In this document: one piece after another, positions 1 through 49,000 of the stretch
Layout of the letters: the number at the start of each line of letters is the position of its first letter
How positions within the stretch are numbered: position 1 is the stretch's first letter
Assembly (NCBI GenBank): GCA_965153355.1
Contig: OZ231126.1
Location: 25,854,001 to 25,918,000, forward strand
Direction: 5' to 3'
Length of the DNA stretch: 64,000 nt
Source of the DNA: Flaccisagitta enflata
Lineage: Eukaryota
Translations under genes and position numbers: made by a program
The notes under the pieces: generated by a model
Database searches by the model: none
What the model saw: the letters and a program-made list of their open reading frames with translations, nothing else
Told to the model about the DNA's origin: nothing

Positions 1-27
1 TTTGTTTATTTCCAAGCAACTGAACAA

Positions 28-826
28 TTTTTAGTCGCGTGATCGCGACTCTACTACCTTGCTCATATGTTTATCACCTCACTTATTGAACAATATCTCC
101 ATTTCAAATGATAATTTTTAAGAAAAATCTGTGATATTCTGAAAGTAAAACAAATTTTTCGATTGAATGCCGCAAACCGCGCTAAATTATCTCTAAGCGT
201 TTAGAAATGACATGCAAAACAAAATTGCTTCTTCAATTCAAAATGGCGAAATTGGATTCAACCAATTTTCCAACGTTCTCTCTTTAAAACTGGAAGCATT
301 ATGCAGAATTTTTTTCATTATAGTTGGTATTCCTTTTTAATTTTTTTGTACTTTGAACAATGGGACGTGCAAGTAAAGAGATTTTGGTCAATATAGGGCT
401 CAATTGTCACTCTTAGAGACAAGAGCCTGATTCACAATTACTCAACCATCTGGTGCGGTACTGAAAAGGATCGCCCTTATGGCCTGTAGGAAGATCATGC
501 CATCCTACTTCAAATCTCTTTACGCAAGTATGCCGAGGCTAATGAAGGCAGTGGTTGATGCTCAAGGTTGTCACAATAAGTATTGAATATGTTCCTTACA
601 TGTATTTGTCCTATTTATCGAATAAATCAACTCATTCTCAAAAAGGTGATAAACTTTTGAGCTAGATAGTATGACCCAATTTGTCCATCTGTCGGTCCGT
701 CCGTCGGTCCGTTTGTCAGTCCGTCACGCTTAACTTTTTTTCGCCGTTTTACGTCGTTTTAAGTCATTTTAGATTTTATCTTTTAGTCTTGACGACCGCA
801 CGCGACTTAGAGGTGTTGGCCTTGTT
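28..826 (+). mobile_element. HINE/DINE-1-like non-autonomous Helentron element interrupted by the Tc1 insertion
   Basis: 5' TTTTAGTCGCGTGATCGCGACTCTA hairpin, (GTCC/GTCG)n tract, 3' CGCGACTTAGAGGTGTTGGCCTTGTT. Uninterrupted mirror at ~47345-47535. Confidence 0.7.
54..669 (+). mobile_element. Internally deleted Tc1/mariner element with transposase N- and C-terminal remnants
   Basis: TA TSD at 52-53 and 670-671. ~25-bp imperfect TIRs CTACCTTGCTCATATGTTTATCACC / GGTGATAAACTTTTGAGCTAGATAG. Start MGRASKEI at ~360 and Tc1-type C-terminus KSLYASMPRLMKAVVDAQGCHNKY* at ~512-586. Empty single-TA site in arm 2 at 47510-47511. Confidence 0.9.
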
Positions 827-992
827 TATCCGTTAAATGCAGGACGACTTGGCCTCCTAGTCTAGCTTGTCTACTGATTGGGCAGACATATCACAATCAA
901 AGTGTCCATTGCATATACATGGGAGCACCGCTAGACCGCACCCGCTAATAGGACATGTGAACCTGTAATAAAATACATTCATTTTTCATTCC

Positions 993-44572: not shown

Positions 44573-46013
44573 GATAACCTTCAGTTTGGGTTTAAACGAA
44601 AAACCAGCACCAACCATGCACTTTTCTCTCTCAAAACAACAGTTGACCATTTCAATGAACGAGGCTCAAATGTATTTGTCGCTTTTCTTGACTGTACAAA
44701 AGCCTTTGATAGAATTTCGCATTCTGGCTTGTTTATAAAACTCATCAAACGAAATATTCCACTGTGCATTCTCATGTGTTTAGTCTACTGGTACCTGAAC
44801 ATGTCGTGTAATGTAAAATGGGCCGACAAACTAAGTAGAGAGTTCAGAGTTCCACTTGGAATAAAGCAAGGTGGCATTAATTCGCCAGAATTATTCGGGT
44901 GCTACATAGATGACATTTGCGCCATTCTCAGACATGCCGATGTTGGTTGCCACATGTATGGTATTTTTCTTGCGATGATATTATTTGCTGACGATCTTTG
45001 TTTGCTGGCACCCACTCGCCAAGCACTCATCAAAATGATTCAACTGTGCGCCGATTATTGCAAGGAATTCGGGCTTGCATTTAATGCCGCCAAGTCAAAG
45101 ATAGTCGTCTTCTCAAAGTCAAAAATAAACAATGACACTCTCGCACCTGTACTTCCTAATGGAAAAGTTGTTGAGTATGTAAGTAGTATCGTTTACCTTG
45201 GAGCTACCATCACCAACAACAAGGGATTTACCTTCTCATCAAAAAATGATCTGGCGAAATTCTATCGCGCTTCTAACTCTACAGAGGATGGAGAAATATA
45301 AGATGTGAACCCCCTAAAACTGTAGCACCCCCCCTTGCAGATCAAACTAAAGCAATGATTAGTTAGTACTGGGTTTCAAATTATAGCTTAGGATTATACA
45401 AGTGGCGCCACCAGGGCGATTTTGAAATTTCTACTCCAGTTTGAAGTTAAAGCACAAAAACCTTAATTTCATAAATATTTTAAAATAGTTTATTTTAACA
45501 TGTTTATTAGTTATATTTTGAGTTAGAAGTCAAAATTTAAAAATCGCTCTGGTGGCGCCACTTTTATTGATACAAACATTCATTCTCTATCCCAAAAGTC
45601 TTTGTAAAATAATTAGGTAGAGCTGTAGGCGGGGGTGCTAAAGTTTTTAGGGGGTTCACACCTTGTATTTAGCACTTCTCTGTATTCTGAGAGCTGTGAG
45701 AAAACCCAGTGAGGAAGTGATGATGCAGCTCCTTTACTCGTGTTGTACCCCAATTCTCTCCTATGCTTGTGCAGTCAAGCAATATTAATCCAAACAAATG
45801 CAAGATTGTTGCACTGCATTAAATGACGCTCTTCGGCTTATATTTGGTTATAACCGTTGGGAGAGTGTTAGAATGTTACGCGAATCGTTTGGGTATAAGT
45901 CACTGGTTGACATATTCAGTCGTGCTAAAGCGAAATTTGACGGTTCCTTGATTTCCCATCATAATCCCATTATATCTCAAATTGCGAGAAACTTGGTGTT
46001 AGAGCAACAATGA
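44573..46013 (+). pseudogene. Reverse transcriptase ORF2 remnant, interrupted by a MITE and one stop codon
   Basis: Removing 45282-45682 plus one TA restores the frame ...FYRASNS|ILRAVRKPSEEVMMQLLYSCCTPILSYACAVKQY*SKQMQDCC...VLEQQ*. Confidence 0.9.
45282..45682. mobile_element. 401-bp TA-target MITE nested in the LINE
   Basis: TA at 45280-45281 and 45683-45684. ~50-bp imperfect TIRs CAGAG...GTGAACCCCCTAAAAC..TAGCACCCCC. Internal IR GTGGCGCCACCAG / CTGGTGGCGCCAC. Confidence 0.92.
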
Positions 46014-49000
46014 TTTAAACGGGTCGCTTCCTTTTTCTGTTATTCTATGAACTGTATTAAAACAGTCCGATTTATCAGTCCCTCATGCTATTATGTAGCG
46101 AGGTGACAAAAGATTTATTTATTTTTTTCCTCTCGCTCTTGCTCTTTGAAACTATGTAGATTTTAGCCATTGATTTGATGTATGTGTATGAATCTGTCGC
46201 TTATTTCTGCTGACGAATTAAAAGAACATATAATTATGAATCAAAAGTCGCATAGAAGAGAGAGAGAGAGAGAGAGAGAGAGAGAGAGAGAGAGAGAGAG
46301 AGAGAGAGAGAGACCCACACATATACAAACACGCACACACATACACACAAGCTCACACACATCGTACGCTCAAGTAAGACTCGTCTGATATGAAGGTGAG
46401 AGAAAAGGTTTTTCTCATCTTCCAGCTGTCTGTCAGTTTGATCTATTGCTTTTCACCTTCCTCCTCCTTAGCCTCCGTCACCTCCTCCTTCTCCTCCTCC
46501 TCCTCTACCTCTTTCTCCATGTTGTACGGCAAACAAAGAGAGACATCTTTCATTTATTCTCAAGAGATTTGGAAAGTGCAGAACAACGTGAGAGCGGAAG
46601 AAAAGAAAAGAGAGAGAGAGAGAGAGAGAGAGAGAGAGAGAGAGAGAGAGAGAGAGAGAGAGAGAGAGAGAGAGAGAGAGAGAGAGAGAGAGAGAGAGAG
46701 AGAGAGACAGACAGACAGACAGAATGGGACAGTCCGTCAGATAGACAGACAGACAGATAGACAGCCAGACTGACAAACAACAGCAGATATACTGTCAATG
46801 AAGGAAATACTATATCAATGATTACGATCAAGAATCACGATGGAAATACAGTTAGGCTTCACCTAACTCTAAAGCGGCTGTCAAGGGAGTAAGGACTGAG
46901 CAAAGTTCTGCCTTATAGTGAAGCTGCCTTATTGCCAATATAGAAATCACTAGATAATCATTTTCTTAGTCGCGTGCTACGCGACTCTACACCCCGCTTT
47001 GTTGGTCCGTCCGTCGGTCCGTCGTTCTGTCAGTCCGTCGGTCGGTCCGTCCGTCCGTCACACTTTACTTTTTTTTTGTTTTAGCGGTCTATGGCCTGCT
47101 CCTGCCCAATTGATCAAGTAACCTCAAATACAGCCCCTGCCCACCCGCACGCGACTGGGATAACCGTGTATCCGGCCTTGTTGGAATGAAAAATGAATGT
47201 ATTATATTACAGGTTCACATGTCCTATTAGCGGGTGCGGCCTAGCGGTGTTCCCATGTATACGCAATAGACATGACATGTCATGTCTGCCCAATCAGTAG
47301 ACAAGCTAGACTAGGAGGCCAAGTCGTCCTGCATTTTACGGATAAACAAGGCCAACACCTCTAAGTCGCGTGCGGTCGTCAAGACTAAAAGACAAAATAT
47401 AAAATGACTTAAAATGACTTAAAACGACGTAAAATGGCGAAAAAAAGCTAAGCGTGATGGACCGACAAACGGACCGACGGACGGACCGACAGATTGACAG
47501 AGTGGGTCATAGAGTCGCGATCACGCGACTAAAAATTGTTCAGTTGCTTGGAAATAAACAAGCCCAATACAAAGCAAGGCAAAAGTATTATCAACCGACA
47601 GACTTACTGACGGAAAAACTGAGAGACTGATAGAACGACTGAACGACTGACCGACACAGCAACGCATAGAGTCCGGGGTTGGCGACCAGAAATGAATCTT
47701 TTCTTGATTCACAGTGAAAATCGCGGTTTCGCATCCCAGTGTTTGTGTGTATGATAAGATAATTGATAAGCACTCATGATCGTTTGAAATCATGCACCAT
47801 TCTTTGATCTGTCAGTCCGTCCGTCGTTTTTTTACTTCTATATGTTACCAAAATTTTACACATTTACGGGTGGGTTCTGCGTCACTGCCACTTGTCAATT
47901 TCTGTCAACGAAGACCGAAAAGCATCATCATGGTACGCAAAAAGCAGAGTGCTTTGAAATTGCCCTGCAAAAGGAACTAACACAATCCTACAACGGGAGT
48001 GAATATGCCTAAAAAACATGTCGCAATCCGCAACAAAAACAACCGCTGGTGTTTTGGTTGATCTCTCACGAGCGCTATCTCAAATCTCTTTGCCATGGTT
48101 TAGACTTGGTCCAACTCACCCCCCCCCCCACCCTCGCGCTTTGCCACATCCCCATATCCCCCCCTCCGCCCCTTGTCCCCTTAGCATCTCACATATATAT
48201 GCAATATCCAAACCGTAACCAACGTCAAACCTGGGAATCTCTCTGTCTGTCTGTCTGTCTGTCTGTCTGCCTGTCTCTCTCTCTCTCTCTCTCTCTCTCT
48301 CTCTCTCTCTCTCTCTCTCTCTCTCTCTCTCTCTCTCTCTCTCTCTCTCTCTCTCTCTCTCTCTCTCTCTCTCTTTCTCTCTCTCTCTCTCATTTCACCC
48401 TTTACGAGACTTGTTTTTGCCACAAAAATCCCTTGTTTTGGTTTGCCGCTTTTTGCTCCATTTAACATGTCGGCTCAAAGGGTGGAGTGGGTGACGGAGG
48501 TGGAGGAAGGGAGGACGAGAATTTTAGAAGAAAAAACAGTGACGGTAGTATGAGCATACGAGGATTAAAAGCCGGAGACAGAAGTTGAAAAGGAAAAGGA
48601 GAAAAAATTAAAAATTCATGTTAACTTAGACAGCTTTGAAACATGATTTTGTATTCGTTAATAGTTAGTCATGTTTACAATGTCGAAATTTTGTTTGTTG
48701 TTAGTGATTCAATCTATCAATGTGTAAGTAGATTTGCCTTTTCTCTCTCTCTCTCTCTCTCTCTCTCTCTCTCTCTCTCTCTCTCTCTCTCTCTCTCTCT
48801 CTCTCTCTCTCTCTCTCTCTCTCTCTCTCTCTCTCTCTCTCTCACACACACACACACACACACACACACACACTGATTTGCATATTGTCATCAATTACGT
48901 TTTGACCTGTCAATAAGCGATGAATCAACGTAAAGGATTTTATTGTTAAGAAAGCTTGTTTCAAGGATGATAATGTCGATATTCATCATATTAAGAACAT

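Follow-up and report, generated by a model that had tools for sequence, protein, structure and literature searches.

The stretch of DNA considered here (the window, 64,000 nt in length) comes from contig OZ231126.1 of Flaccisagitta enflata, assembly GCA_965153355.1, and contains a large inverted duplication. Arm 1 occupies positions 1-15898, and arm 2 occupies positions 31700-47561. The arms are colinear reverse complements of at least 15,898 and 15,862 nt, respectively, and the spacer between them (15899-31699) is 15,801 nt long. A repeat search of the window produced 58 inverted pairs, the long ones being colinear between 1-15898 and 31700-47561, and a self-BLAST of the window agrees with this arrangement. 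The window contains no N.

Arm 1 was aligned with the reverse-complemented arm 2 using 20-mers unique in both arms as anchors, after which the intervals were filled. Almost all common unique 20-mers (9,063 of 9,067) sit in one colinear chain, which consists of 106 exact blocks with a total length of 11,018 nt. As controls, arm 1 was compared with the forward strand of arm 2, with each strand of the spacer, and with each strand of the right flank. These five comparisons yielded only 23-51 common unique 20-mers, as against 9,067 in the real pair, and thus the inverted match is far above the chance level. The original prediction of a colinear reverse complement between these positions around 15.8 kb of other sequence is therefore borne out. 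The complete alignment of the arms has 13,160 columns with 240 mismatches (134 transitions and 106 transversions; 98.18% identity) and 67 indels. The match is not uniform, as indel sequence private to one arm amounts to about 17% of each arm.

The inner junction is as sharp as had been predicted. The homology of the arms stops at 15898/15899 and 31699/31700, give or take a few bases, and past these points the two sides have in common only some 10 nt of ragged, T-rich sequence. On the outer side, positions 2-53 match 47561-47510 (52 of 52), then arm 1 contains an insertion, 54-671, and the homology returns at 670-672 with 47511. Position 1 does not match 47562, but this is a single base and carries no information. 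Since the match runs to the window edge, again as predicted, the outer end of the palindrome lies beyond the view.

Two strata of different divergence can be distinguished in the arms. A single change point in arm identity was located by maximum likelihood, and the resulting strata were compared by the Fisher test. Identity changes after position 7653 of arm 1 (40005 of arm 2), with a support interval of 2 log-likelihood units (2-lnL) covering 7653-7701. The outer stratum is formed by 1-7653 of arm 1, cut by the window edge, and its reverse complement in arm 2, 40005-47561, each with private indels. It has 220 mismatches in 5,103 columns, that is, 4.31% divergence (about 95.7% identity). The inner stratum is formed by 7654-15898 of arm 1 (8,245 nt) and its reverse complement 31700-40004 of arm 2 (8,305 nt), and here only 20 mismatches are observed in 8,057 columns, that is, 0.248% divergence (about 99.75% identity). 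The difference is 17-fold (Fisher p = 9e-68; 2*delta lnL = 304). In the immediate vicinity of the step, 14 mismatches in 7364-7653 are followed by none over about 290 nt. The step falls in plain sequence, with no insertion or array at this spot. A 182-nt dispersed repeat (7512-7693 and 39965-40146, with a further copy at 56307-56488) happens to straddle it.

The strata differ in indels as well. The outer stratum contains 48 indels (5,004 nt summed over both arms), and the inner stratum contains 19 (436 nt). All seven inner indels of at least 15 nt are microsatellite length changes, and all large indels not related to simple sequence repeats (SSRs) are in the outer stratum. Thus the inner block is the longest structurally uninterrupted homology between the arms, delimited by the spacer at its inner end and by a 325-nt indel (7274 in arm 1, 40384-40708 in arm 2) at its outer end. 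Among the SSR tracts of at least 20 nt in the inner stratum, 11 of 12 differ in length between the arms. There are few 1-nt indels, and approximately 10 of the 20 substitutions are located outside repeats, in plain sequence, so the differences within the inner stratum look real and not like consensus noise.

The outer stratum carries a number of insertions private to one arm. In arm 1, the 618-nt insertion at 54-671 has TA at both ends and loosely inverted termini, and the empty site is intact at 47510/47511. A 613-nt foldback miniature inverted-repeat transposable element (MITE) at 2203-2815 is bordered by a TA target-site duplication and ends in terminal inverted repeats (TIRs) of about 27 nt; from end to end, the element is 75% self-complementary, and its empty site is intact at 44342/44343. 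A 655-nt stretch at 3669-4323 includes a 21-nt minisatellite (18 copies, 3841-4218). The 258-nt insertion at 5420-5677 has an ambiguous target-site duplication. Finally, about 290 extra nucleotides at 6382-6673 represent a local duplication, matching 6214-6450 and 41358-41473 at 74-89% identity.

In arm 2, the 325-nt indel at 40384-40708, flanked by a 21-nt direct repeat, lies about 380 nt beyond the identity step and is the first large heterology outside the inner block. A 188-nt MITE at 41484-41671 ends in imperfect TIRs of about 26 nt and shows a duplicated TA, with an intact empty site at 6198/6199. The 618-nt, 613-nt and 188-nt insertions are counted here as small non-autonomous DNA transposons. 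The 22-nt minisatellite at 42304-42410 is 66 nt longer in arm 2 than in arm 1. A 1.68-kb fragment at 44561-46244 (plus strand) has a match to the RVT_1 family: the open reading frame (ORF) 44546-45298 is aligned with profile positions 38-205 of 205 (E = 1.8e-24, 87.1 bits with a cut-off of 29.6). At E <= 1e-3, 147 relatives of this reverse transcriptase (RT) fragment have a similar length, and 133 longer relatives are found at E <= 1e-20; the best match is 98% identical over 94% of the ORF. The full-length relatives, about 940-960 amino acids (aa), contain the endonuclease domains PF03372 and PF14529 and the RT domain PF00078. As the longer relatives carry both endonuclease and RT domains, the fragment is a 5'-truncated long interspersed nuclear element (LINE). 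The numerous relatives, including the 98% match, suggest that an APE-type LINE family has been recently active in this genome.

Private insertions with intact empty sites mean that the histories of the arms have been separate long enough for several transposition events. Together with the approximately 10 plain substitutions of the inner stratum, the private transposons show that the arms are distinct molecules or loci, and not one locus read twice. This bears on a technical foldback, in which one locus would have been duplicated via chimeric palindromic reads or as a homotype duplication at a contig end. Such errors do occur: artificial palindromic long reads are described as a product of whole-genome amplification (10.1101/173872), and homotype duplications are reported at contig boundaries (PMC8081667). 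However, the arms of a foldback artefact should be identical save for sequencing errors, with little or no spacer, and a structure of at least 47.6 kb exceeds most read lengths. The 4.31% divergence of the outer stratum, the private transposons, whose target-site duplications are clean and whose empty sites are intact, and the 15.8-kb unique spacer rule this explanation out, and we assign it a negligible probability.

The reading that we favour, and consider probable although by no means assured, is that an inverted segmental duplication really exists here, that it is old and lies in repeat-rich, non-coding nuclear DNA, and that its inner 8.2 kb were later made alike. The copies would be paralogues on one chromosome. 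The inverted duplication would have come first, with arms of at least 15.9 kb and a spacer of 15.8 kb. The outer part, at least 7.6 kb, would then have evolved independently, acquiring 4.3% substitutions, at least three private MITEs, one private LINE fragment and other indels. [quoted passage not shown] Conversion would have run outward from the spacer junction and stopped some 380 nt short of the first large heterology. After that, the inner block would have gained about 0.25% substitutions, and nearly all its microsatellites would have changed length.

Homology without interruptions is a requirement of homologous repair, which mismatches and heterologies impede. The single sharp step in plain sequence looks like the end of a conversion tract, and it is conversion that presumably produced the young stratum, its extent possibly being limited by structural heterology. 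Multi-kilobase conversion tracts between palindrome arms have been reported for human P6 (PMC3723533).

The spacer is single-copy. No inverted self-symmetry was found in it, and it has no partners elsewhere in the window except short dispersed repeats. A degenerate 37-nt minisatellite on the plus strand (30990-31680) adjoins the inner end of arm 2. Tandem Repeats Finder (TRF) reports an array at 31382-31674 with 7.9 copies and 85% matches, and degenerate copies extend back to about 30990. No counterpart of this minisatellite was found beside arm 1.

These features are relevant to the main rival explanation, a heterotype false duplication, with the arms being the maternal and paternal alleles of one locus placed in one contig. 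One route to such an error is a heterozygous inversion of the 15.8-kb spacer, whose two orientations were collapsed into one node of the assembly graph. A wrong walk would then enter from the flank P of one haplotype and leave into the flank P' of the other haplotype in reverse, yielding P-spacer-rc(P'), where rc is the reverse complement, with junctions at the inversion breakpoints. The other route is a chimeric join at the 37-nt minisatellite, which indeed adjoins the junction 31699/31700. False duplications of diverged haplotypes are reported to be among the commonest assembly errors and to become more frequent with heterozygosity (PMC8081667). The arms differ in substitutions, SSR lengths and transposon presence or absence, like haplotypes of a very polymorphic species, and the 0.25% divergence of the inner stratum is at the level of ordinary heterozygosity. 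Moreover, arm 1 runs off the window, whose edge may be a contig end.

On the other hand, false haplotype duplications are described as arising at graph bubbles or contig ends, mostly beside gaps after scaffolding (PMC8081667), and the window is free of N and of gaps. For an inverted copy to come to lie within a contig beyond 15.8 kb of unique sequence, an additional rare event is needed, and in the absence of a minisatellite copy beside arm 1, a repeat-mediated wrong join has no visible substrate. The outer stratum combines 4.3% substitutions with private indels that take up about one third of the sequence, which is extreme for a pair of alleles. Neutral recombination would then hardly leave 8.2 kb at only 0.25% next to it: a 17-fold difference in divergence between neighbouring tracts of 8 kb and at least 7.6 kb would not be expected of two neutral alleles, unless the recombination rate per base is much lower than the mutation rate.

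The diagnostic signs given for heterotype false duplications are half depth with haplotype-specific variants, and such duplications are said to occur in regions of raised haplotype divergence (PMC8081667). Our structure resembles those described there in having two diverged copies close together with haplotype-like differences; it differs in the inverted orientation, the 15.8-kb unique spacer and the lack of a gap. The lack of N and the single-copy asymmetric spacer do not make the usual picture of haplotigs placed side by side at a scaffold gap. With this spacer, no N and diverged arms, an artefact would need a special route, either the inversion mis-walk or the minisatellite chimera. Thus the head-to-head haplotig join of the original prediction, which in its plain form implies little or no spacer, does not fit the 15.8 kb of single-copy sequence. 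More generally, the prediction named the right pair of alternatives, a genuine palindrome or joined haplotypes; the sequence does not decide between them, and both had to be refined. We consider two haplotypes in one contig a possible explanation, but a doubtful one.

Several points weigh against the favoured reading of an old duplication with a homogenised inner part. Both 0.25% and 4.3% could be allelic differences in a highly heterozygous species with hyperdivergent haplotypes. That the arms are paralogues is presumed from the assembled sequence. Arm 1 is cut by the window start, and if this is also the start of the contig, it is a place where assembly artefacts gather. The junction 31699/31700, which looks novel, adjoins a minisatellite, a typical place of wrong joins. 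Concerted evolution would be deduced here from a single genome. The GC content is 42.4-42.5% in the inner stratum and 41.1-41.4% in the outer stratum, a difference too small to be a clear mark of GC-biased conversion. Finally, gene-free arms give selection nothing obvious to maintain.

No genes were found in the arms or the spacer by ORF-based Pfam scans, although short exons could escape such scans. Stop-to-stop ORFs of at least 70 aa number 321 in the window; 204 low-complexity ones were removed and 117 were scanned. The match to RVT_1, private to arm 2, is the only one above the cut-off. Four further matches of these 117 ORFs fell below the Pfam cut-off, two to ABC_membrane_3 (the same ORF in both arms) and two to Atrophin-1. 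The ORFs of 45-69 aa number 381, and 181 of them were complex enough to pass the filter; after removal of 25 duplicates from arm 2 (31700-39800), 150 of the remaining 156 were scanned (the other six lie at 59553-62767). No families were found among these 150. The spacer has no Pfam match. Thus, unlike palindromic amplicons of gene families, the arms contain no protein-coding genes common to both that are detected by Pfam. In the whole window, no Rfam families at the gathering score and no tRNA genes were observed. An inverted repeat of an organelle or viral genome, for instance the plastid arrangement of two inverted repeats around a small single-copy region (IR-SSC-IR), was rejected given the lack of Rfam families, tRNA genes and coding ORFs. 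Such a genome would be densely packed with genes, its identical repeats bearing those for rRNA and tRNA.

The window has a GC content of about 41% and a CpG observed/expected ratio of 0.64, which is not mammal-like. By its composition, the DNA might be that of an invertebrate. Perfect SSRs of at least 12 nt, mostly (GA)n/(CT)n, (CA)n and tetranucleotides of the TCTC type, make up 8.5% of it. TRF finds many mini- and microsatellite arrays, and the long ORFs are mostly translations of simple repeats.

One more explanation is that the arms are two head-to-head copies of a large dispersed repeat, whether a duplicon present in many copies or a non-autonomous transposon of very great length, with the common inner end 15898/31700 being the terminus of the element. 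Both copies indeed stop at the same base on the inner side, and non-coding arms full of nested small repeats fit such an element. However, the arms have no transposase, integrase or other mobile-element domain in common, the only RT being a private insertion. In the 32 kb of the window outside the arms, no unique arm segment was found a third time. If one element had inserted twice, the divergence between the copies should be even from end to end, without a 17-fold change at a sharp step. We regard a dispersed element as very improbable.

Several other repeats were observed in the window. The TRF tandem arrays of the spacer are 16754-17207, 17513-17660, 19412-23657, 27172-27794 and 29522-29865. 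The third of these is a complex array of 4.3 kb with nested periods of 12, 36, 48, 58 and 166 nt and copies that are 63-88% alike. The 11-nt array 16754-17207 has no similarity to this complex array. It was also considered as an inverted relative of the 12-nt array 23045-23657, but there were no matches, and this relation is unsupported.

An isolated inverted pair links the spacer (24402-25686) with the right flank (62260-63540) over 1.3 kb at 91% identity; it is probably a dispersed repeat. As this is the only such pair and its centre of symmetry is different, a link of the spacer to the right flank as a part of the palindrome was rejected. Foldback elements of 0.34-1.4 kb with 68-80% arm identity occur at 52930-54351, 58928-59514, 30159-30497 and 45280-45684, and repeats of this type seem to be common in this genome. 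A short interspersed repeat of about 70-170 nt is present at 11818-11978 (corresponding to 35525-35685), 28237-28344, 30034-30159, 55768-55838, 57072-57239 and some other positions, its copies in the arms, spacer and flank having 71-91% identity.

By the usual definition, a segmental duplication is at least 1 kb long and at least 90% identical. The arms exceed both limits and are not explained by a common transposon, and thus they fall into this class provided that they are paralogues and not alleles. The 90% identity floor is also named in PMC13688818. The palindromes considered by Jackson et al. 2021 have inverted arms of >8 kb with >99% identity around a spacer (PMC8327919). The arms described here are inverted, exceed 8 kb each and surround a spacer, but identity over the whole visible arm is 98.18%, below the limit of at least 99%, and only 95.7% in the outer stratum. 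The inner block taken alone (8,245 and 8,305 nt at 99.75%) falls within that definition.

The original prediction likened the structure to the mammalian palindromes kept similar by conversion. The likeness is only partial. The inner 8.2 kb alone have the >99% identity that would be expected of such arms; the outer part of at least 7.6 kb is 4.3% diverged and carries private transposons, and no gene was detected in arms or spacer. The structure is similar to primate and mouse X and Y palindromes (P1-P8 of human Y, 26 palindromes of human X) in having inverted arms of >8 kb and a non-duplicated spacer. The inner block is >99% identical, as conversion predicts, and the spacer is within the range reported for such palindromes, 77 bp to 358 kb; their rearrangements are reported to be concentrated at the centre (PMC8327919). 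However, identity in those palindromes is >99% (X) or, as reported, >99.9% (Y; PMC8600007) along the whole arm, whereas here it is confined to 8.2 of at least 15.9 kb. Of the 26 human X palindromes, 21 are reported to have protein-coding genes in their arms (PMC8327919), whereas no gene was found here, and the CpG ratio of 0.64 and the SSR content of 8.5% are not mammal-like.

A closer parallel is SD12A1 of mouse chromosome 12, described as a non-coding palindromic segmental duplication in which cross-arm identity is about 93% and a few of the blocks are younger (PMC13688818). Both structures have non-coding or fragmentary arms, mostly well below 99% identity, with strata of higher identity. 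However, SD12A1 is megabase-sized and consists of multiple blocks, and its authors report no evidence of inter-arm conversion (PMC13688818). In contrast, our structure consists of two arms in simple colinear order, and identity rises in it once and abruptly, to 99.75% beside the spacer. Among invertebrates, long near-perfect inverted repeats of Caenorhabditis elegans are reported to be maintained across species (PMC1803023). They too are more alike than expected, implying active homogenisation, but they consist of homologous gene pairs with intergenic sequence, and here no gene is seen. The structure thus is of a known type, an inverted segmental duplication with partial homogenisation.

The window might also show the middle of a far larger palindrome, located in a part of an invertebrate genome that does not recombine (a sex-limited one, for example), where conversion would continue despite the lack of genes in the arms and would be fenced by heterology. 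We consider this unlikely. If it were the case, the window would be a snapshot of outside-in decay, and homogenisation would be a mechanical by-product of the structure, not something kept by selection on genes.

Should the structure be an artefact instead, then a heterozygous inversion was walked wrongly or a haplotype was retained at this place, and counts of duplications in the assembly would be affected. In neither case is there any sign of an element of a new kind or of a function. If the favoured reading of an old inverted duplication with later conversion of its inner part is true, arm-to-arm homogenisation can act on gene-free DNA, and conversion over a tract of about 8 kb is able to stop within plain sequence, shortly before the arms first differ by a large indel. 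Inversion of the spacer by recombination between the arms is established for such structures, and here recombination between the near-identical inner arms would be predicted to make the orientation of the 15.8-kb spacer polymorphic. A palindrome could then decay from its outer ends, with its centre staying alike.

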